Origin: Eledone cirrhosa
Lineage: Eukaryota
Direction of reading: 5' to 3'
NCBI GenBank assembly: GCA_964016885.1
Contig: OZ024743.1
Span: 112,902,001 to 112,966,000 of the forward strand
DNA length: 64,000 bases
Position 1 is the stretch's first letter, and every line of letters begins with the position of its first letter. This document shows, piece after piece, positions 3,474 through 45,953 of the stretch. Position numbers and translations under genes: made by a program. Under the pieces are notes generated by a model. That model was not told the origin of the DNA, did no database searches, and saw only the letters and a program-made list of their open reading frames with translations.

Positions 3474-3534
<61 letters not shown>

Positions 3535-3836
3535 ATAAATGCGAAACAAGGCCTTGTCGGCTTATCTCCCCTTGTTTGCTGAGATTAAGGTAAGTTAGTT
3601 TGTCACTACTCTAAAACAATAGCATACGGTCTTCAAAATGCTTTTAATTAAGCATAAAGTGTATTGCAAAATACATTATATATACATTCATATATATATT
3701 GCTATTTCAGAGCTCCAATTCTAATTTTTAATTTCTGCCTGACCGGCAACCGCTCTGTATAATCAGTTCCTGATTATTTACTAGAATTCTATAAGAATAT
3801 AACATCAGTGATCTCAGTAGAAAGGAGGGAGTAGTT

Positions 3837-3881
3837 AGCCTTGATAAGCATCAATAATTGCGAAACAAGGCCTTATCGGCT
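3837..3881 (+). ncRNA. Type I hammerhead ribozyme, U3-A8 variant (copy with stem III mismatch, AUC site)
   Basis: AGCC-TTGATAA-GCA(tcaataat)TGC-GAAA-CAAGGCCTT-ATC-GGCT. Confidence 0.7.
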
Positions 3882-4155
3882 TATCTCCCCCTGTTTGCTG
3901 AGATTAAAGTAAGTGAGTTTGTCACTACTCTAAAACAATAGCATACGGTCTTCAAAATGCTTTTAATTAAGCATAAAGTGTATTGCAAAATACATTATAT
4001 ATACATTCATATATATATTGCTATTTCAGAGCTCCAATTCTAATTTTTAATTTCTGCCTGACCGGCAACCGCTCTGTATAATCAGTTCCTGATTATTTAC
4101 TAGAATTCTATAAGAATATAACATCAGTGATCTCAGTAGACAGGAGGGAGTAGTT

Positions 4156-4200
4156 AGCCTTGATAAGCATCAATAAATGCGAAACAAGGCCTTGTCGGCT
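4156..4200 (+). ncRNA. Type I hammerhead ribozyme, U3-A8 core variant
   Basis: Stem I AGCC/GGCT, core TTGATAA, stem II GCAT/ATGC with CAATAA loop, GAAA, 12-nt palindromic stem III ACAAGGCCTTGT. Predicted cleavage after GTC (4196). Confidence 0.85.
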
Positions 4201-4361
4201 TATCTACCCTTGTTTGCTGAGATTAAAGTAAGTGAGTTTGTCACTACTCTAAAACAATAGCATACGGTCTTCAAAATGCTTTTAATTAAGCATTAAGTGT
4301 ATTGCAAAATACATTATATATACATTCATATATATATTGCTATTTCAGAGCTCCAATTCTA

Positions 4362-4486
<125 letters not shown>

Positions 4487-7699: not shown

Positions 7700-8752
7700 T
7701 TCTTAACTCTGAAGCCGAGAATCATTCGGTTTCCTAAATAGAATTTTAGTCTACAACTTCAGTTATACCATTAACGTGGTTTTGTCTTTGCGTGTAATTG
7801 TTCTCAACGTTCCACATAATGACGTATTATCTTCATTTTTTTTTCGTTCATTGCCAGAGAACGTCTTCACGAACCACCTAATAGAATATTAGTCTACGAG
7901 GGCAAAAGGCCAGATAGCATGACGATCTTCCCGTTCAGCGGTGGCAAACCCCTTGTCTGGGATGCCACTTGCACCGACACTTTCTGCAGCCGCAACCTGG
8001 TGGAGTCTGCGACTGACCCAAGTTCTGCTGCACGTCGGGCTGAGGGGGCCAAACTCCTCAAATACCGGTCGCTCTCCGACAGGTTTGCGGTCGTACCCTC
8101 TGGCAGTGGAGACATCTGGTGCCCTCGGCCCCAGGGTTACCTCCTTACTCACCACCATAGGCGTTGAGCTGACCAGCCGCAGGTGTGAGCCCCGCGAGTT
8201 GGAATGGCTTTTCCAGCGCGTCTCCCTTGCCGTCCTCCGGGGAAACGCCTTCTCCATTCTGTCCACCGGGGCTATGGGTGGCCCCATCGCGTACCAATAC
8301 ATTAGTTAAATACCATTCTTTCATCTGATATATGTACACATATAGTCCGTATGACACAATTAATAAACTAAAAGAAGGTTTTAATTGTATATATGTATTT
8401 ATACCATAAACGTGGTTTTGTCTTTGCGTGTAATTGTTTTAACCGCTCCAAACAATAACGTATTATCTTCGTTTTTTTCCGTTCTTTGCCAGGGAACGTT
8501 TCCACGAACCAAAGTATCGTCTTCCTGTCTTACTTCGGTGGCAATGTTTTTCAAAATATTTACTTCTGCGTTCACAGATTGATTTTATTAGTTTCAGAAG
8601 ATCCCGTTATGGGTGAAAGAAGCGATTCTTTGCTTAAACTTTAATCTGTTATTTTAATAAATATTTGCTCTACGGTTCTTATATATTTTATATATATTTA
8701 TCCTTATCGAGGACTCTTTGGATATTAGTCTTCAAATGTTATTATTGTTACT
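7700..8752 (+). mobile_element. Family D TA-associated repeat interrupted by a CRE-like insertion
   Basis: Segments 7700-7893 and 8398-8752 are colinear with the uninterrupted copy at 48315-48865. Confidence 0.75.
7894..8395 (+). mobile_element. CRE-clade-like non-LTR retrotransposon 3' fragment (restriction-like endonuclease)
   Basis: GKRPDSMTIFPFSGGKPLVWDATCTDT...AE..K..KY...LAVETSG...WLFQRVSLAVLRGN with one frameshift, followed by a probable 3' UTR with AATAAA. Confidence 0.8.
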
Positions 8753-8755
8753 ATA

Positions 8756-8835
<80 letters not shown>

Positions 8836-8839
<4 letters not shown>

Positions 8840-8950
8840 TGAAACAAAATGAAAACGAAATTTCATTTCTCACTCTTAGTATGGCACTTACTTAAATGTA
8901 AGTATGCATGTATACGTACATACATATATGTATACAGACGTACAGTAGCA

Positions 8951-9026
<76 letters not shown>

Positions 9027-10075
9027 TATATACATATGCATACAGGTACACATACATATATGCACGTATCAGTTTAGCGGCGCTTATTATAACGTCGCTT
9101 TGTTCGTTTGTAAACAAACTGAACAGCCTGAATTTATGCCATACGGTGTTAAGGCAACCACGTCACCTTTTTGTTCAACACTGACACAGGAACGATGTAC
9201 TAGTTTCAAGCTTGTTAGCTATCGTCAGCACCGTTTACCCATCTGCCAGATAGTTGAACGTTCGAAAGTATATACTTTCCTTATGAAAATTAAAGGCTGA
9301 GCAGCCTAATTTGCATATTGAGTGAGTTAAATCGGTCAGGCATACCGAAAACGATAAATTGAAACAAAATGAAAACGAAATTTCATTTCTCACTCTTAGT
9401 ATGGCACTTACTTAAATGTAAGTATGCATGTATACGTACATACATATATGTATACAGACGTACAGTAGCATGCATATATATATATATACATATATATATA
9501 CATATGCATACAGGTACACATACATATATGCACGTATCAGTTTAGCGGCGCTTATTATAACGTCGCTTTGTTCGTTTGTAAACAAACTGAACAGCCTGAA
9601 TTTATGCCATACGGTGTTAAGGCAACCACGTCACCTTTTTGTTCAACACTGACACAGGAACGATGTACTAGTTTCAAGCTTGTTAGCTATCATCAGCACC
9701 GTTTACCCATCTGCCAGATAGTTGAACGTTCGAAAGTATATACTTTCCTTATGAAAATTAACGGCTGAGCAGCCTAATTTGCATATTGAGTGAGTTAAAT
9801 CGGTCAGGCATACCGAAAACGATAAATTGAAACAAAATGAAAACGAAATTTCATTTCTCACTCTTAGTATGGCACTTACTTAAATGTAAGTATGCATGTA
9901 TACGTACATACATATATGTATACAGACGTACAGTAGCATACATATATATATATATATATACATATATATATACATATGCATACAGGTACACATACATATA
10001 TGCACGTATCAGTTTAGCGGCGCTTATTATAACGTCGCTTTGTTCGTTTGTAAACAAACTGAACAGCGTGAATTT

Positions 10076-10081
<6 letters not shown>
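8836..10081 (+). repeat. Head-to-tail ~470-bp structured units, about 2.5 copies (family B)
   Basis: AAATTGAAACAAAATGAAAACG recurs at about 8836, 9356 and 9825. Flanked by (TA)n; many hairpins. Confidence 0.85.
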
Positions 10082-10394
<313 letters not shown>

Positions 10395-10395
10395 T

Positions 10396-10496
<101 letters not shown>

Positions 10497-10689
10497 ATAT
10501 GTATATATTTATATATATATATGTATATATTTATATATATATATGTATATATTTATATATATATATGTATATATATATGTATATATTTATATATATATAT
10601 ATGTATATATTTATATATATATGTATATATTTATATATAGATATATAGATATATATATATATGTATATATTTATATATATGTATATATT

Positions 10690-10784
<95 letters not shown>

Positions 10785-10838
10785 TTATTAAAATAACAGA
10801 TTAAAATAACAGATTAATCTGTTATTTTAATAAATATT

Positions 10839-10901
<63 letters not shown>

Positions 10902-10930
10902 GTATATATTTATATATATATGTATATATT

Positions 10931-11565
<635 letters not shown>

Positions 11566-11681
11566 TATATATATGTATACATATATATGTCTGTATGCTT
11601 AAAGTAAACGGAAACTTCAAAGAACACAACACAGTGCAATGAAGAAATATATTAGTTTAACTTTGATATAATAGGAAAAGA

Positions 11682-11719
11682 GTCTTTACGTTTCAGACAC
11701 TAGTCCTTCATCAGAAGAC
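11682..11719 (-). ncRNA. Minimal type I hammerhead ribozyme (family E, PLE type)
   Basis: Minus strand GTCTT-CTGATGA-A-GGAC(TAGT)GTCT-GAAACGTA-AAGAC: 5-bp stem I, palindromic ACGT stem III, GUA cleavage site. Confidence 0.8.
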
Positions 11720-12031
11720 AGGACGAGAAATAAAAGATGAGAAAGAAAGATAGAGAGTAAAAGGAAGGAAAAAGAATGTTTTTAAGAAAAAAGCACGTAT
11801 GTAACAGGTAAAATACCGATCTCTATACTATGAACACTTCATATATGTGTGTATATATTTATATATATTTATGTATATATATATATATATATATATAGGC
11901 AGTTGTTACGAGTTGCTCCCTTCTGGACCATCTTTGAGATCTCGGGATATGCAAACTTTGTGCAACCATCACATGCCGCCCAGGATCGGTCACAGATCTA
12001 TCACCAGTTCTCCGAGCGTTGGATTGAGACT

Positions 12032-12114
<83 letters not shown>

Positions 12115-12141
12115 ATGTGTGTGTAGATACTTTATTTTTTT

Positions 12142-12189
<48 letters not shown>

Positions 12190-12252
12190 GATACTTTATT
12201 TTTTTTTATATATATATATGTATATGTGTGTGTGTGTGTATGTATATATATG

Positions 12253-12287
<35 letters not shown>

Positions 12288-12289
12288 GT

Positions 12290-12480
12290 AAAATGTAAAC
12301 AGAAAAACAACACAGACGGTACAGTATATGGAAGGAATATATTAAGTTAAAGTTTTGGACGCTAGTCCTTCATCAGAAGAAAGAATGAGAAATCAGATAG
12401 ATTGAAGGGACGGGCGGGATGGAATTGGAAAAAAAGTCTTTAGATAAAAATAGCAGATGTCAACATTCATGTTGACATCT
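12290..12480 (-). mobile_element. Family E repeat with disrupted hammerhead
   Basis: CTGATGAAGGACTAGCGTCCAAAAC (G12 lost, downstream deletion). Otherwise similar to 59370-59650. Confidence 0.7.
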
Positions 12481-12511
12481 CTTGGAAAATATATATATAT
12501 ATATATATATA

Positions 12512-12725
12512 TATTGGAAAATGTGTGAGATCCTTGGTACAGTTAGGTATATTTGAAAAAAAGGAAAAGAATGACTTCACTTGTAGTGTTAAAACATTTT
12601 TTGATTTAATTTTATAATATTATATCATGAGTTGGTTGATCTACCAACTCATAATATTATAATATTGTAAAATTAAATCAAAAAAATGTTTTAACACTAC
12701 AAGTGTTTTCCTTTTTTTCAAAAAT
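12512..12725. repeat. TA-embedded fold-back element (family J)
   Basis: Inverted arms at about 12551-12636 and 12643-12724 around GAGTTGGTTGATCTACCAACTC. The minus strand ends TTTTCCAAT|ATAT. Confidence 0.7.
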
Positions 12726-12777
12726 ATATATATATGCATATATATGCACATATATATGCATACCTTTTCACGCACAC

Positions 12778-12814
<37 letters not shown>

Positions 12815-12818
<4 letters not shown>

Positions 12819-13322
12819 GGAAAAAATGAAACGAAATTTCATTTCCCACTCTTAGTACGGTTGTTACTTAAATATAAGTATGTACACGTACATACATATA
12901 TGTATACAGAAGTACAGTAGCATGTATATATATATACATACATGCACACATATATATATATGTACGTATGGATTCACCGAACATTTATTATAATGCTCGG
13001 TGTGTTTGTAAGCAAACATCCCGTATTAAGCCGTAGTGTCTAGCAACCATCGTTGCTCGTTTGTTCAACACTGACAAAGGAACGCTGTACTAGTTTCAAG
13101 CTTATTAGTTATCGTCAGCAACGTATACCTTCCTGCCAGATTGTTGAACGTATATACTTACCTTATGCATATTAACGGCTGAGTAGCCCAATTTGCATAT
13201 CGATTATAATAAATGTTCGGTGAATCCATACGTACATATATATATATATGTGTGCATGTATGTACATATATATACATACTACTGTACGTCTGTATACATA
13301 TATGTATGTACGTGTACATACT

Positions 13323-13325
<3 letters not shown>
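12815..13325 (+). mobile_element. Family B diverged subfamily with terminal inversion
   Basis: Homologous to 8836-10081. Segment 13203-13325 is an inverted copy of about 12873-12992. Confidence 0.8.
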
Positions 13326-13383
<58 letters not shown>

Positions 13384-13727
13384 TTGTGTCTATGTATGAT
13401 TTTGTTCAATATACCTACGGATAAATTAAAGCGCCCGCTGTCGGCTACTTACGAACCTAAGATGCAGCGCATGACTGCTGGACATGATATCCATTCATTT
13501 AGATACAACTCTCTACCATTTACACAAAAGAAAATCATTCTACGGAAAACAGTTTGAAGCAACAAATTTTCCAAAGACTCTCTGCCAATTAATTTCATTT
13601 TAAGAAACTGCAATTAACATTTTCGGTAATAAATTAGAGGTTATGGCGGATATGGCGGACATTAATCTTATGCCTAATTTAAGATGATGGAAGGGCCAAA
13701 GATAGGCATATATATATATATATATAT

Positions 13728-13947: not shown

Positions 13948-16900
13948 TGTTTCTTTATTAGCCACAGGGGCACAAAAGAAGAGGACAAATACAAAGGGGG
14001 AAGTTTACATACAATAAAAACGTGTAAGATATTATCACAAATGCAATTGAAAAGTTAATCGATTTTCCCCAATAGGGGGAGACATTTCATATGGGTAACA
14101 CACACCCATGAAAAAATGTGCAACCCTCATCTCCAGGAGTACGAAAAGAGTTAGTACCCCTTTCCTCTCTTCCTCCTTTTCCTCAACCTACAGGCTGATA
14201 TAGAGAGAAGGCCCATTCACTCGGGCCATTCTCGCCACTTTCACCCACCTTTCATAAAACTTGCTGGGGTACAGCACCTCACTCTCCATCCTGATTCTTC
14301 TTCCAAAGTGGTATTTGAAAAAAAGAATCAGTTGTTGGCCGGAGAGAAAGGTGTCTGACCTCAGCCCTTTTAATCTAGTCCACCATACAATCTCTTTCGC
14401 CATAGCTATCACAAAAAGGAAAACAGCCTCTCCTTCGTTTTTGAAGGAGGGTGGCGGTTTGATCATGACAATGGACTCAGTGGTCAACCGGATTGGTCCA
14501 ACCCGAGAAAATAGTCGTTTTACATAGCCCCACAGGTCGGTAACGCCCGGGCAGTTTACAAATGTGTGCGCGACGGTTTCCTCGTCGCGCACCTCATCTC
14601 GGACAGATCTTTTTCGAAGGATCCCTACCCGAGCGCCCGTGTCTGTAGAGCTTGTCTCGAACTGGTAGAGCTCCTCGGTAGCACTGCCAGGCCAGGGACT
14701 TTTGGAAGTTGTCCATCGGTCCCGGGCGGAAGGTCCTACCAAAGAGACTGGCCAGTTCGTCCTTCTCTACGCCCAGAGTTTCTCCGAGCGCGTCGTCGCA
14801 GTTGCTGCGGACCAACCCTCTATAGAATGTCGAAGTGGAGTCTCCACTGATCGCCGAGTCCGTTTGCCAGAGGACTGTGAGCGTCTGAGCACATTCGATG
14901 TGCCAGTCGCCCATTTTCCTCGATCTTTGCTTGACCCAGGACTGCAGCTCGGTCAGCGAGACGAGTCGTGGGAAGGCTCGCCTCACGAACGGGGCCACAC
15001 CGGTTGTCCGGTGAGGAATACGTGGAGGTGCCGCAGTCTGAGCGCGTGTTTGCGCATTGTCAGCCACGGCATTCCCAGCCCTCCGTTTGAAGGGTGTTAG
15101 CAGCAGATGGATCACTCACCAAAGGAGCCGTTTCTTCTAAAGGAATTGGAAGAGCGCGTGCTCCATTTTGGCGAGCGTTTTGGCTGGACAAGGCACGACG
15201 GACAAGCGGTAGTAGATGACGGACGCTATAAAAGTGTTCGCCACCTTTCAAGGATAGCTGGCACTCGGCCCACTTCTGGGTGAGCGCAAACACCTTGGCC
15301 GTCACCTCCTTCCAGTTCTTCTCCACCTGGAGGTCTGTACCAAACCAGACCCCGAGCAGCTTTACCGGTCCTTCCGTCCAGCGTCCGACGACGTCATCGG
15401 AAAGCATCGGTTTGCCTCTCCACGTTCCGAATTGCAAACCGACGGATTTGTTCCGGTTCAGCTTCGCTCCTGTGAACCTTTCGTATTCCTCCAGTAAGGT
15501 GCCGCTCTCCCCGATTTGCTCGACACCATTACTGTCTCGTCGTCGGCGTAGACCGACGCCGCTTTTCGCAGTCCCGGTTCCAAAGGGATGCCCTGCAATA
15601 GCTCCAACTTCCGCAGTAGTGGCTCGAGAGTCAGTACGTACAGAAGACAGGAGAGAAGGCATCCCTGTCGGTATGGATCGCGTGATATGGAACGGCTCCG
15701 ATAGGTAGACGTTCACCTTGACCCTTGAGCAGATGTTGCTGCTGTGCATTGCAGCAATCCAGCCCCTGAACGCGGGTCCGAAGCCTGCCGTCTCGAGCAC
15801 CGCATCCAGGTAACGATGGTCAACCCTATCGAAAGCCTTAGACTGATCCAAGTTGATCAGGGCCCCACCGAAGCCGGGTTTACACCCTACCCTCTCTATA
15901 ATGTATCGCATGAGGTGGAGGTTGTCATGTATGGACCTGGTCGGGATTGCGCATGTCTGCGTTTCTCCCACCAGGTTTTCGACGACAAGCGCCAGCCTCT
16001 TTGCCAACACCTTGGCCAAAATCTGTAACTCTGTATTGAGCAGTGTTATTGGCCGGAAGTTGCCTATGTCATCCCCCTCATTCTCGTCCTTCCTGACTAA
16101 TGTGACTACGCCCCTGGTCACAGAACTGGGAATTCTCCTGTTCTGCTGCCAGTTGCAGTAGACCGCTTCCAGGAGACCGGAGAACAAGTCCGGCATTGCT
16201 ACGTAAAATTCGTAGGGTAGACCGTCGAGACCTGGATATTTGCGTTTGCTGCATTGGCTCAGCGCGTCCCCTATCTCAGCGGCCGAAATCGGCCTTTCGC
16301 AGAACTTCGCCTCGCTGTCCGAGAGTCGCGGTAGGCCGTCAAGGTATGGACCGAAATCCATAGCCACTCCCGGCGCGCCGCCCTGCCCTATCAAATGAGC
16401 AAAGTGCCGCTGAAAGTCCGCGCACATCTGCTTCGGCTCATGTATCACGCGTCCGTCATGGTCCTTCAAAGACCGTATCGTGGACTTGTTGCCAATTTTC
16501 GCCTCCGTCACTCTAGCCCAGCTAACAGCTTTGTCTCCCTCGTTTTCCAGAGCACGTATTTTGTTTCTGACAATGCAGCATTCATGCTTTGCATCGAAGA
16601 ACTGGTCCAAGGCTGTTCTCGTAGCTCGCACGCTAGCTACGTTGCCACTCCTAAGTGCCTCTTCTATTTTATCTACCAGTTCCTTTTCGGTCTTATTTCT
16701 ATCTAACACTAATTCTTTACTAAAACCTATCGAGTCTAATCTAACTGCCCTCTTCAGAGAGTACCACCATTTGTTGTTGACAATGGCCCCGTCAAGCGCT
16801 GCTTAACTTAAGTGCTAATCCGTCTACTGTAGGCTTTGCATGTCGGTAACGACAAGTTCAGCTTCCAGTAGCCGGGTCCCTGTCTATGGGTTTTGTCAAG

Positions 16901-19542: not shown

Positions 19543-20091
<549 letters not shown>

Positions 20092-20243: not shown

Positions 20244-20285
<42 letters not shown>

Positions 20286-20291
20286 TATATA

Positions 20292-20872
20292 TAAGTATGT
20301 ACACATACATACATATATGTATACAGACGTACAGTAGTATGTATATATATATACATACATGCAAACATACATATATGTACGTATGGATTCACTGAACATT
20401 TATTATAATGCTCGGTGTGTTTGTAAACAAACATCCCGAATTAAGCCGTAGTGTCTAGCAACCACCGTTGCTCGTTTGTTCAACACTGACAAAGGAACGC
20501 TGTACTAGTTTCAAGCTTATTAGATATCGTCAACAACGTATACCTTCCTGCCAGATTGTTGAACATATATACTTACCTTATGCATATTAACGGCTGAGTA
20601 GCCCAATTTTCATATCGAGTAGGTTAATCGCCCGGGTGCACCGAAAACGATAAACGGAAAAAATGAAACAAAATTTCATTTCCCACTCTTAGTACGGCTG
20701 TTACTTAAATATAAGTATGTACACGTACATACATATATGTATACAGACGTACAGTAGTATATATATATATATATACATACATGCACACATATATGTATGT
20801 ACACGTACATACTTATATTTAAGTAACAGCCGTACTAAGAGTGGGAAATGAAATTTTGTTTCATTTTTTCCG
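20292..20872 (+). mobile_element. Family B copy (one unit plus inverted terminal segment)
   Basis: Nearly identical to 12815-13202. Segment 20795-20872 inverts 20655-20732. Confidence 0.8.
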
Positions 20873-21001
20873 ATTATATATATGTGTGTGTATATATATA
20901 TACATATATATATATAAAAGGAACGATCGACTTTCGTCAAATCGGACCGAGGGAACAATGTTTCCGTTGGTCTTTCCAATTGCTAATACTATCTATCGGT
21001 C

Positions 21002-21284
21002 GCAACTCCAGGTAGAAGGAGCAACGTGAAATAAAGTGTCTTGCTCAAGGACATAACGCATCGCCTGGTCTAGGAATCGAACTCACAACCTTACGATTGC
21101 GAATCCAATTCTCTAACCACTCCGCCACACGCCTTCATATATATATGTGAAGGTGTGTGGCGGAGTGTTTAGACAATTGGATTCGCAATCGTAAGGTTGT
21201 GAGTTCGATTCCTAGACCAGGCGATGCGTTATGTCCTTGAGCAAGACACTTTATTTCACGTTGCTCCTTCTACCTGGAGTTGCA
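21002..21284. mobile_element. Head-to-head inverted pair of tRNA-derived CORE-like SINE 5' halves
   Basis: GTGGCGGAGTGGTTAG A box, GAGTTCGATTCC B box, GTCCTTGAGCAAGACACT core-like segment. Arms at 21002-21137 and 21148-21284 surround a short TA run. Confidence 0.8.
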
Positions 21285-21379
21285 ATGTTTCCGAACACGG
21301 AAGAGCCGAACTCCCACTGTCATCGCTTCCATCTTTCTCGCCCTCTCCATCTCTCTGTATAGTAAGCAAATGGAGTCCC

Positions 21380-30880: not shown

Positions 30881-31250
30881 GAAATATATAGCTTTCACCG
30901 TATTTTTGACTAAAGGAATTTTAGCTTGATAACGGGGTTTAGAACCCTCAGATAAATGGAAAAAGATGAGTATTGACGTACATGGGAGTCGAACCCACAT
31001 CTGTGGTTATCGCGACCACTGTGCTACCATTACACCAAGTGTTGGTGTAATGGTAGCAGAGTTGTCGCGATAACCACAGATGTGGGTTCGACTCCCATGT
31101 ACGTCAATACTCATCTTTTTCCATTTATCTGAGGGTTCTAAACCCCGTTATCAAGCTAAAATTCCTTTAGTCAAAAATACGGTGAAAGCTATATATTTCC
31201 TAATTTCAAACTCGCTAACTGTTTCAAAACATACTTACTTGATATATATA
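30876..31250. mobile_element. Fold-back element with tRNA-like head (family G)
   Basis: Arms of about 163 bp at 30876-31038 and 31042-31204. TGGTGTAATGGT A box, GTGGT/ACCAC anticodon-like stem, GGGTTCGACTCCC T arm, then TTTTT. Confidence 0.8.
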
Positions 31251-42869: not shown

Positions 42870-43319
42870 TATTTACTCTTATATAGATCGAAAGATTTAA
42901 TTTGAATTAATGCTTTCAAAAATTACTGGAGGATGTTAAGAAAATACAATATCCCTACAACACCCTTCCCTATTTATTCTTTCTTTTTTCTTGTCTTCAT
43001 TTTAGTTGTTTTACGAGCTTTTAAAACCTAATTTCTTCTTTCTTATATTTCATTGTTTTTCATCGTTCTTTTTATAATGTTTTAATTAGCTTGCTTCAGA
43101 ATAGAAAAATAAACCAAGGAAATTGAGAAAGAGAAAATGTATGAATGTATGTATTGATAGATACACCTACATATCTATTTATTTATCTATTTATTTATCT
43201 ACCTATATATTTACCTATTTATCTATCTACCTATTTATCTATCTATCTACTTATCTGTATATCTACCTATCTACCTACCTATCTAGTAATCTACTTGCCT
43301 ATCTACCTACCTATCTATC

Positions 43320-45953
43320 TAGTGACCTGCATGGTCAACCTTGATAGAACCCATAGACAAGGACCCGGCTACTGGAAGCTGAACTTGTCGTTACCGACAT
43401 GCAAAGCCTACTGTAGACGGATTAGCACTTTAGTTAAACAGCAATTGACAGGGGCCATTGTCAACAACAGATGGTGGTACTCTCTCAAGAGGGCAGTTAG
43501 ATTAGACTCGTTAGTTTTTAGTAAAGAATTAGCGTTAGATAGAAATAGGACTGAGAAGGAACTGGTAGATAAAGTAGAAGAGGCAATTAGAAGTGGCAAC
43601 GTAGCCAGCGTGCTAGCAGCGAAAACGGCCTTGGACCAGTTCTTCGACGCAAAGCACGTGGACTGCGTTGTCAAAAGCAAAATACGTGCTCTGGGTAACG
43701 AGGGAGCCAAAGCTGTTAGCTGTGCCCGGTTGACGGAGGCGAAAAGTGGCAACAAGTCCACGATTCGGTCTTTGAAGGACCAAGACGGACGCGTGATACG
43801 TGAGCCGAAGCAGATGTGTGCGGCCTTTCAGCGGCACTTTCCTCAGCTGTTCGGGCAGGGCGGCGCGCCGGGAGGGGCTATGGAATTCGGTCCATACCTC
43901 GACGGCCTGCCGCGACTCTCGGACAGCGAGGCGAAGTTCTGCGAAAGGCCGATTTCAGCCGCTGAGATAGAGGACGCGCTGAGCCAATGAGGCAAACGCA
44001 AATCTCCCGGTCTCGACGGTCTAGCCTACGAATTTTACGTAGCAATGCCGGACTTGTTCTCTGTTCTCCTGGAAGCGGTCTACTGCAACTGGCAGCAGAT
44101 CGGGAGAATTCCCAGTTCTGTGACCAGGGGCGTAGTCACGCTAGTCAGGAAGGACGAGAATAAGGGGGATGACATAGACAACTTCCGGCCCATAACTCTG
44201 CTCAACACAGAGTTACAGATTTTGGCCAAGGTGTTGGCAAAGAGGCTGGCGCTTGTCGTCAAAAACCTAGTGGGAGAAGCGCAGACATGCGCAATCCCGA
44301 CCAGGTCCATACACGACAACTTCCACCTCATGTGATACATCGTAGAGAGGGTTGGGTGTAAACCCGGCTTCGATGGGGCCCTGATCAACTTAGATCAGTC
44401 TAAGGCTTTCGATAGGGTTGACCATCGTTACCTGGATGCGGTGCTCGAGACGGCAGGCTTCGGACCCGTATTCAGGAGCTGGATTGCTGCAATGCACAGC
44501 AGCAACATCTGCTCAAGGGTCAAGGTGAACGGCTACCTCTCGGAGCCGTTCCATATCATGTGATCCATACCGACAGGGATGTCCTCTCTCCTCCCTTCTG
44601 TACGTACTGACTCTCGAGCCACTACTGAGGAAGTTGGAGCTATTGCAGGGCATCCCTCTGGAACCGGGACTGCGGAAAAGAACTGGAACGAGGTGATGGC
44701 CAAGGTGTTTGCACTCACTCAGAAGTGGGCCGAGTGCAAACTATCCTTGAAAGGTCGAGCGGAGGTGGCGAACACTTTTATAGCGTCCGTCATCTACTAC
44801 CGCTTGACCGTCGTGCCTTGTCCAGCCAAAACGCTCACCAAAATGGAGGGCCTGCTCTTCCAATTCCTTTGGAAGAAGCGGGCTCTTTACGTGAGAAGAT
44901 CCATCTGCTGCCAACACCCTTCCAACGGAGGGCTGGGAATGCCGTGGTTAACGATGTGCAAACACGCGCTCAGGCTGCGGCACCTCCACGTATTCCTCAC
45001 CGGACAACCGGTGTGGGCCCCGTTCGTGAGGCGAGCCTTCCCACGACTCGTCTCGCTGATCGAGCTGCAGTCCTGGGTCAAGCAAAGACCGAGGAAAATG
45101 GGCGACTGGCACATCGAATGTGCTCAGGCGCTCACAGCCTTCTGGCAGGCGGACCCGGCGATCATTGGAGACTCCACTTCGACATTCTATAGAGGGTTGG
45201 ACCGCAGCAAGTGCGACGAGGCGCTCGCAGAAACTCTAGGCGTAGAGGAAAACGAACTGGCCAGTCTGTTCGGTAGGACCTACTGCCCGGGACCGATGGA
45301 CAACTTCCAAAAGTCTCTGGCCTGGCAGTGCTACCGAGGAGCTCTACCAGTTCGAGACAAGCTCTAAAGACATGTGCGCCCGGGCAGTGACCCTTCGAAA
45401 AAGATCTGTCCGAGATGCGTGCGAGACGAAGAAACCGTCGCGCACGCATTCGTACACTGCCCGGGCGTTACCGACCTGTGGGGCTATGTAGAACGACTAT
45501 TGTCGCGGGTGGGACCAATCCGGTTGACGACCGAGTCCATTGTCATGATCAAACCGCCACGCTCCTTCAAAAACAAAGGAGAGGCAGTTTTCATTTGTGT
45601 GATAGCTATGGCGAAAGAGGTTGTATGGTGGACGAGGTTAAAAGGGCTGAGGTCAGACACCTTTCTCTCCGGCCAACAACTGATTCTTTTTTTAAAATAC
45701 CACTTTGGAAGAAGAATCAGGATGGAGAGTGAGTTGCTGTACCCCAGCAAGTTTTATGAAAGGTGGGTGAAAGTGGCGAGAATGGCCTGAGTGAATGGGC
45801 CTTCACTCCATATCAGCCTGTAGGTTGAGTAAAAAGATAAGAGAGAAAATGGGTACTCACTCTTCATACTCCTGGAGATGAGGGTTGCACATTTTCTCGG
45901 GGGTATGTGCTACCCATATGTAATGTCTCCCCCTATTGGTGAAAATCGATTAA
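43320..45953 (+). mobile_element. Tx1-clade non-LTR retrotransposon, second decayed copy
   Basis: GPGYWKLN, NFRPITLLNTE, KAFDRV, GGLGMP, CPRCVRDEETVAHAFVHC; in-frame stops. An internal deletion near 44675 removes the YADD region. The 5' end abuts degenerate (TATC/TACC)n, and the 3' UTR is cut at a TA array. Confidence 0.92.

Follow-up and report, generated by a model that had tools for sequence, protein, structure and literature searches.

Animal non-LTR retrozymes and Penelope-like elements (PLEs) are the described systems that lie closest to the repeat reported here. In the axolotl, a U U mismatch lies at the foot of helix II in the retrozyme hammerhead HHR_Amex2; the monomer is cleaved to 22% in an hour and the dimer to a much greater extent, and this U.U hammerhead yields circles (Cervera and de la Pena 2020, PMC7229834). 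A 2026 preprint (bioRxiv 10.64898/2026.07.22.740005) argues for a PLE origin of animal retrozymes on the grounds of co-occurrence and pLTR homology. One of its nine predicted retrozyme dimers, all from Xenopus, cleaved in vitro, and the preprint calls the mechanism open. In both papers the enzyme that moves non-LTR retrozymes is still a candidate or part of a model, and the main text of neither mentions tails or inverted arms (the words inverted, tail and microsatellite have no matches in the main text of PMC7229834).

PLE insertions, as described by Craig et al. (2021, PMC8557442), consist of partial tandems with an inverted 5'-truncated copy and a tail of 30-40 bp that is often confined to one end, and have (TA)n targets. 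Frangieh et al. (2024, PMC11167929) report on a PLE protein that cuts AT-rich DNA in both strands and extends each of them; they find that copying starts internally at two RNA sites with the tail being the sequence between them, and that the start site is no different between strands. For the anole PLE of that study, hammerhead cleavage depends on the protein and is dispensable for insertion in vitro.

Here we analyzed a window of 64,000 nucleotides of Eledone cirrhosa DNA, taken from a 3.0-Gb assembly, together with copies found elsewhere in the genome. The window contains a tandem repeat, which we call family B, whose minus strand carries a type I hammerhead motif. Our literature search, which covered mostly non-subscription papers, found no published description of family B and no work joining a non-LTR retrozyme with inverted, target-primed insertion.

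A tandem array with a hammerhead on the minus strand

Tandem-repeat analysis of the window identified a 468-bp unit with 98% matches at 8836-10083, in agreement with an earlier sequence-only reading that had placed a ~470-bp tandem at 8836-10081. This insertion, of subfamily B1 and on the minus strand, has 2.55 units: 8836-9355, which includes a 52-bp TA expansion, 9356-9823, and a partial unit at 9824-10083. Apart from the expansion in the leftmost unit, each pairwise comparison of units shows two substitutions. The 5' end of the RNA is truncated at 10083, and its 3' end, at 8836, is the "long" of two fixed ends described below. The TA setting and partial tandem architecture proposed earlier are both present, with unstranded (TA)n tracts at 8752-8835, next to the RNA 3' end and the putative insertion target, and at 10081-10125, next to the truncated 5' end. 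A "tail" of ~60 nt between the short and long fixed 3' ends (8836-8896, minus strand) contains the AAATGAAA/TTTCATTT hairpin. No ORF of at least 150 aa overlaps the array in an ORF scan of the window. A further repeat flanks the array face-on in two copies (8580-8752 and 10126-10260), each of which stops at a TA tract; the left copy has a hammerhead-like stretch at ~8596-8625 with CAGAAGA and a U.U-closed stem. TA tracts seem to accumulate successive insertions.

A second subfamily, B2, is ~75% identical to B1 and occurs at 12816-13203 and 20280-20811, with an inverted arm on each; the arms start at ~13203 and 20795-20811, where inverted ends had been noted near 13203 and 20795. The first B2 insertion (12816-13330, minus strand) joins a minus arm at 12816-13203 with the long end to an inverted plus arm at 13203-13330 with the short end, and its core is intact with a single stem II mismatch. 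In the second (20280-20872, minus strand), the minus arm at 20280-20811 has the short end and the inverted plus arm, reaching ~20872, has the long end. Here the hammerhead is likely inactive, judging from a C3U change plus a stem II mismatch.

The sequence-only reading had found no hammerhead core. A scan of both strands, however, located one on the minus strand at 9228-9198 and again at 9696-9666, with altered copies at 13118 and 20533. Along the minus strand the core runs CUGA(U/C)GA, U-AGCU-AACA-AGCU-U, GAAA, CUAG and UA, and the flanking CGGUG and CAUCG form stem I. Hammerhead 1 (9641-9727 with its extended stem I) has CUGAUGA at 9696-9690, a U.U-closed 4-bp stem II, GAAA at 9675-9672 and a palindromic stem III, with a predicted cut at 9666/9665. 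Hammerhead 2 (9173-9259), whose core is likewise intact, has CUGACGA at 9228-9222 and a predicted cut at 9198/9197. Between the two predicted cuts lies a predicted monomer of 468 nt (9198-9665, minus strand). B1 has the CUGANGA, GAAA and NUH core around a three-way junction, and its open stem I with closed stems II and III gives it type I topology; each unit carries one such hammerhead, with a long stem I, the palindromic stem III ACUAGU and a GUA cut triplet. Families B and C (the latter is described below) both show an A-rich loop 2 and, at a distance of 5-6 bp from the core, an internal loop; these are putative partners in a loop 1-loop 2 tertiary contact. The helices named in the sequence-only reading are present in the sequence, although its "multibranch domain" is the hammerhead read backwards and the helix it gave as GTTCAAC/GTTGAAC forms the outer end of stem I. 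A twister-like interpretation of the plus strand, made by eye, was rejected; it too is the hammerhead core backwards, and no Rfam twister match accompanies it.

The usual G10.1-C11.1 pair is missing, and U.U occupies its place in 18 of 19 aligned copies. In hammerheads this pair is common, though not obligatory. The U.U closure is no bar to membership because the axolotl U.U variant cleaves (PMC7229834). The Rfam comparison proposed in the sequence-only reading gave a weak match: at gathering scores a scan of the window had no match in the array, while at relaxed thresholds Hammerhead_HH9 (RF02275) matched 9648-9710 on the minus strand with 18.5 bits and an E value of 0.043 (gathering score 52). 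With E values up to 10 allowed, the 301 bases at 9540-9840 matched just two families, HH9 and snoJ33. There was no Rfam match on either strand to twister, twister-sister, pistol, hatchet, HDV or hairpin ribozymes, which holds for the classes with an Rfam model. A scan by E value over 8700-13400 was swamped by miRNA matches to AT repeats. The low HH9 score is likely due to the U.U at 10.1/11.1 and to a stem III that is just the palindrome ACUAGU. The ribozyme itself is ordinary, and it illustrates how a U.U-closed hammerhead on the strand that is not read slips past both the eye and the Rfam threshold.

Other repeats were observed in the window. A 319-bp tandem at 3531-4363 (plus strand) is 78% like family C over 155 nt, ends in TA tracts and matches HH9 with an E value of 0.0039. 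At 4160-4196 it has a U3-A8 variant hammerhead (UUGAUAA, a long palindromic stem III and GUC), of which a changed copy lies at 3841; such a core has been described (PMC4209133). Another hammerhead family with a minimal stem III (AACGU[U/A]) is found on the minus strand at 11714, 59487 and ~12360-12385, with GAAA changed to AAAA in the copy near 12370. Broken copies of an RT-coding non-LTR retrotransposon, unrelated to the array, occupy 14188-16802 (minus) and 43145-45367 (plus), and a partial tRNA match at 30982-31037 (minus, 31.9 bits) is possibly a SINE head. Single contigs of 365-486 nt with a depth of 4-10 match the unit in sequencing runs labeled as three other organisms, and may stem from carry-over or from relatives.

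Copy number, conservation and strand

Family B copies are dispersed on both strands of the genome. A 28-base pattern of core plus stem II has 26,187 exact genome matches and its reversed control has 0; a pattern fixed on the flanks alone, with the core left free, has 23,890. Core and stem III are unchanged in ~86 of 100 listed flank-pattern matches, counted by eye. Since the repeat is young, this share reflects intact master copies and not selection on each copy.

For the alignment we used 19 copies, namely the B1 copy of the window and 18 non-redundant copies out of 28 with full flanks (40 were found), chosen by the core pattern with four mismatches allowed. Ten of the 17 core and adjoining columns are invariant, and the others differ in at most two copies except for the free position 7, which is U in 9 copies and C in 10. 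Across 38 pairs, 97.5% of the 717 cells are paired. Both sides changed in only 2 of the 38 pairs, a count that shuffles equal 470 times out of 500, and 20 pairs never vary. Covariation within family B is thus thin, and the covarying helices reported in the sequence-only reading were overstated. The TTATTATAA helix shows double changes at four pairs, at a place where the alignment between subfamilies is uncertain, and several helices beyond the hammerhead are retained. In family C and in a PLE-linked hammerhead of this genome, the core and the U.U closure are kept while pairs of stems I and II are replaced on both sides, and stem III is self-complementary across the sister families (ACUAGU, ACGCGU and AGUACU). 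On the sequences compared, covariation is clearer between families than inside family B.

Family C (L061-L090) is a second U.U hammerhead retrozyme family with a 310-bp unit and head-to-head arrays of more than 10 units; the core pattern that it dominates has 14,706 matches in the genome. When we looked for additional U.U families, requiring a stem II of 14 nt and a base other than C at 15.2, there were 169 matches against 46 for the control, mostly decayed copies or chance.

The structured strand is the minus strand, not the plus strand as previously proposed. For the 93-nt B1 domain the folding z score is -3.31 (minus strand) against -0.87 (plus strand), and for the B2 domain -2.65 against -1.32. 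Among the non-Watson-Crick cells of the 19 copies, 68 are G.U on the minus strand and 6 are G.U on the plus strand. As a circle, the 468-nt monomer reaches -153.0 kcal/mol (z -8.5) on the hammerhead strand and -120.1 kcal/mol (z -4.8) on the other. Self-pairing of monomers is high, with z scores of -8.5 and -7.7 from 30 shuffles each. Circle energy favors the hammerhead strand in all 10 family B monomers but the opposite strand in all five family C monomers, which speaks against energy as the sole evidence for strand. A plus-strand transcript of 9356-9830 would be antisense RNA and would contain no hammerhead.

On its own, a unit is more stable in an inactive fold, with CUG paired to the stem III loop (-20.0 kcal/mol, against -12.5 for the hammerhead fold). 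Two units folded as a double hammerhead reach -41.8 kcal/mol, against a total of -40.0 for separate monomers. The lowest cofold energy of two units, -43.4 kcal/mol, belongs to a structure other than the double hammerhead. The energies of one versus two units fit the dimer model for hammerheads with a short stem III (PMC4209133, PMC6765202).

Fixed ends and Penelope-like elements

Read on the hammerhead strand, all 19 distinct arrays that stop past the terminal motif do so at one shared position with TA-rich sequence adjoining. This long fixed end lies 310 nt downstream of the cut site in B1, and the short fixed end ~60 nt before it, or ~250 nt from the cut site. The motif occurs 54 times: 24 occurrences continue, 15 are long ends and 15 were classed as short, 14 of these within ~15 nt of one site and one running into unrelated sequence.

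Two-armed insertions are arranged head to head with their 3' ends outward. In the first set, seven of the eight with both ends listed combine a long with a short end, and the remaining one combines a short with an atypical end. A second set was drawn from 20 further stretches of the genome match lists, with inverted pairs preferred, and all 12 of its scorable two-armed insertions are long plus short, although two of the 12 (L176) look locally duplicated and L182 partly overlaps the first set. L172 was left out, one of its ends not being found and the other misclassed, and the "long" call for the single-armed L189 in fact continues. Combining both sets, 19 of 20 scorable inverted two-armed insertions have one arm at each fixed site, and no long-long or short-short pair occurs among those scored. 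Paired long and short ends are the "tail" signature of PLEs.

Arms of the same insertion can be nearly identical. Of eight insertions with a hammerhead in both arms, three show 0-1 differences from arm to arm (5 in one unit), where the nearest other insertion differs by 2-13; the other five show 6-41, a count that includes gaps where an arm is cut. The longest arms have up to seven hammerhead units (L182), with 0-1 differences among the units compared. Family B insertions have the partial tandems, 5' truncation, inverted 5' arm and one-end tail of PLEs. As in retrozymes, their tandem units measure a few hundred bp, are non-coding and contain a single type I hammerhead. Perfect head-to-head inverted insertions that adjoin TA sequence, in which our scans found no hammerhead, also lie at 19660-20030, 20920-21290 and 12540-12720, and perhaps reflect the same insertion mode.

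The genome encodes PLEs of its own. A GIY-YIG search returned 10,596 candidates, at least 150 of them over the cut-off (150 were scored, all passing). Three ORFs of 636-1096 aa all contain an RT, and two of the three contain GIY-YIG; in the PLE ORFs of this genome the nuclease is preceded by a CxxxxCxxC motif, which has been assigned to Neptune and Nematis (PMC8557442). Among 20 PLE loci that we retrieved, six arms of five loci have a U.U hammerhead 355-408 nt past the stop codon, and this PLE-linked motif has 5,901 exact copies in the genome. The two inverted PLE arms of L136 also differ in their ends, one being long and the other short. Several further hammerhead-like motifs, in which a U precedes GAAA and another follows A9, were seen in L129, L136, L137 and L126. 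These sequences suggest that U.U closure is common among PLE-type repeats of the genome. Direct homology was not observed: B1 has no significant match to the 3' region of one PLE (best E 0.35), and no pLTR homology to family B was found in 50 GIY-YIG loci taken from the 150 scored of 10,596 candidates. A family B copy is present in 3 of the 50 PLE loci, roughly the chance expectation from its density.

Origin of family B and comparison with known systems

Family B is very probably a hammerhead retrozyme or a derivative of a PLE. As the U.U closure has already been described, and cleaves, in an axolotl retrozyme, we class family B by sequence as a new non-LTR retrozyme family and not as a new ribozyme class. 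What holds of the earlier proposal is that the repeat is a structured RNA, likely with a role in processing tandem transcripts, and that it has the architecture of the hammerhead families; its "new class" is a type I hammerhead on the opposite strand. The repeat is likely a non-LTR retrozyme, that is, a non-coding retroelement whose multimeric transcript is predicted to cut itself into monomers of 420-540 nt, and its insertions suggest copying by Penelope-like elements from two fixed ends.

A further-reaching interpretation, to which we give a probability of roughly 65%, is that family B records an insertion mechanism in which a PLE-type RT-endonuclease primes both cut (TA)n strands and, on circular or multimeric hammerhead RNA, starts from two fixed internal sites separated by 60 nt, with each strand strictly paired to its own site. 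The array would be transcribed by read-through, and neighboring units would join by their self-complementary ACUAGU into a double hammerhead that cuts after GUA, releasing a monomer of 420-540 nt that would then be circularized; that family B forms circles is rather probable. A PLE protein with RT and GIY-YIG endonuclease would bind near the tail hairpins and nick (TA)n, and reverse transcription would start internally, for each target strand at a different place, ~250 or ~310 nt downstream of the cut site. Copying around the circle or along the multimer would produce tandem arms with variable 5' ends, and the insertion would finish by head-to-head joining of the arms or by 5' truncation. The array in the window is a single arm with the long end, and its two intact hammerheads are predicted to be enough to release one monomer. 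Precedents for this explanation can be found in PMC7229834, PMC4209133, PMC8557442, PMC11167929 and bioRxiv 10.64898/2026.07.22.740005.

Most of these steps would be the same if family B were a non-autonomous PLE derivative that moves as an uncut linear multimer, its hammerhead kept but needing protein or rarely cutting; the circle is the only difference. The fixed ends lie 250-310 nt off the cut site and not at it, the monomer prefers an inactive fold, eight of nine Xenopus dimers were uncleaved (bioRxiv 10.64898/2026.07.22.740005), and the protein-dependent hammerhead of the anole PLE could be dispensed with in vitro (PMC11167929), all of which are consistent with such a derivative. Retention of the core across subfamilies and sister families while the stems change argues the other way, as do the cleavage and circles of the axolotl U.U hammerhead (PMC7229834) and the arms of up to seven units with 0-1 differences, which fit one template copied repeatedly. 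We regard the uncut derivative as a possible but distinctly less likely account.

Tandem arrays and inverted arms can also arise and homogenize in DNA, and the unit does vary in length in its internal TA region, so a satellite or fold-back element spread by recombination or slippage, with the hammerhead as a relic, was considered. Copies are dispersed on both strands, however, their 3' ends fall at two precise positions while their 5' ends vary, long and short ends are strictly paired, and the wobble pairs are workable on one strand alone; all of this points to an RNA intermediate, and we regard spread at the DNA level as highly improbable. Least likely of all is a new self-cleaving RNA class, or a second catalytic motif in the unit beside the hammerhead, since despite the strong structure of the whole monomer (and of its plus strand) and the helices kept outside the hammerhead, the domain singled out is the hammerhead's reverse complement, its plus-strand fold is not above chance in either subfamily, plus-strand stability is explained by Watson-Crick symmetry, and self-paired circles are typical for retrozymes (PMC7229834).

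Returning to two-site priming by PLE machinery, the value of family B lies in its insertion ends: there are tens of thousands of young copies, two mapped putative start sites, and PLE ORFs with RT and GIY-YIG in the same genome. The retrozyme class is already known, and the paired-end rule is the main new element. If the two-site reading is true, family B would be direct genomic evidence that PLE machinery mobilizes animal retrozymes, and its pairing rule would be one that is absent from the one in vitro PLE system. The ends make the question of which enzyme moves retrozymes testable.

Family B can be set beside several known systems. Like Rtz_353, the axolotl retrozyme with HHR_Amex2, it consists of short tandem repeats with a type I hammerhead whose helix II is closed by U.U and whose helix III is short, and it has a GC content below 50% and copies in the tens of thousands (PMC7229834). 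The Rtz_353 hammerhead cleaves better as a dimer, as is also predicted for family B. The family B monomer is longer (422-538 nt, compared with ~350 in the axolotl), its stem III is a 6-nt palindrome and it has an internal TA-rich hairpin; its (TA)n targets, inverted arms and two fixed ends are features not found in the main text of PMC7229834. With canonical EN+ PLEs (Neptune/Nematis type; PMC4209133, PMC8557442, PMC11167929), it shares the type I hammerhead and its palindromic helix III. Both have partial tandems, truncation at the 5' end, an inverted 5' copy and, optionally, a tail on one side; both are found at AT-rich or (TA)n targets and, as we infer for family B, start reverse transcription internally. 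Family B differs from these PLEs in having a unit without an ORF and a tail of ~60 nt instead of 30-40. Non-LTR retrozymes of mussel, coral and Xenopus (PMC7229834; bioRxiv 10.64898/2026.07.22.740005) are likewise non-coding, have one type I hammerhead per unit and co-occur with PLEs; for these, expression or pLTR homology has been shown, whereas family B is known from its genomic insertion signature. Hammerhead_HH9 of Rfam (RF02275) has the same type I topology and core, from which family B departs in its short stem III and in lacking G10.1-C11.1.
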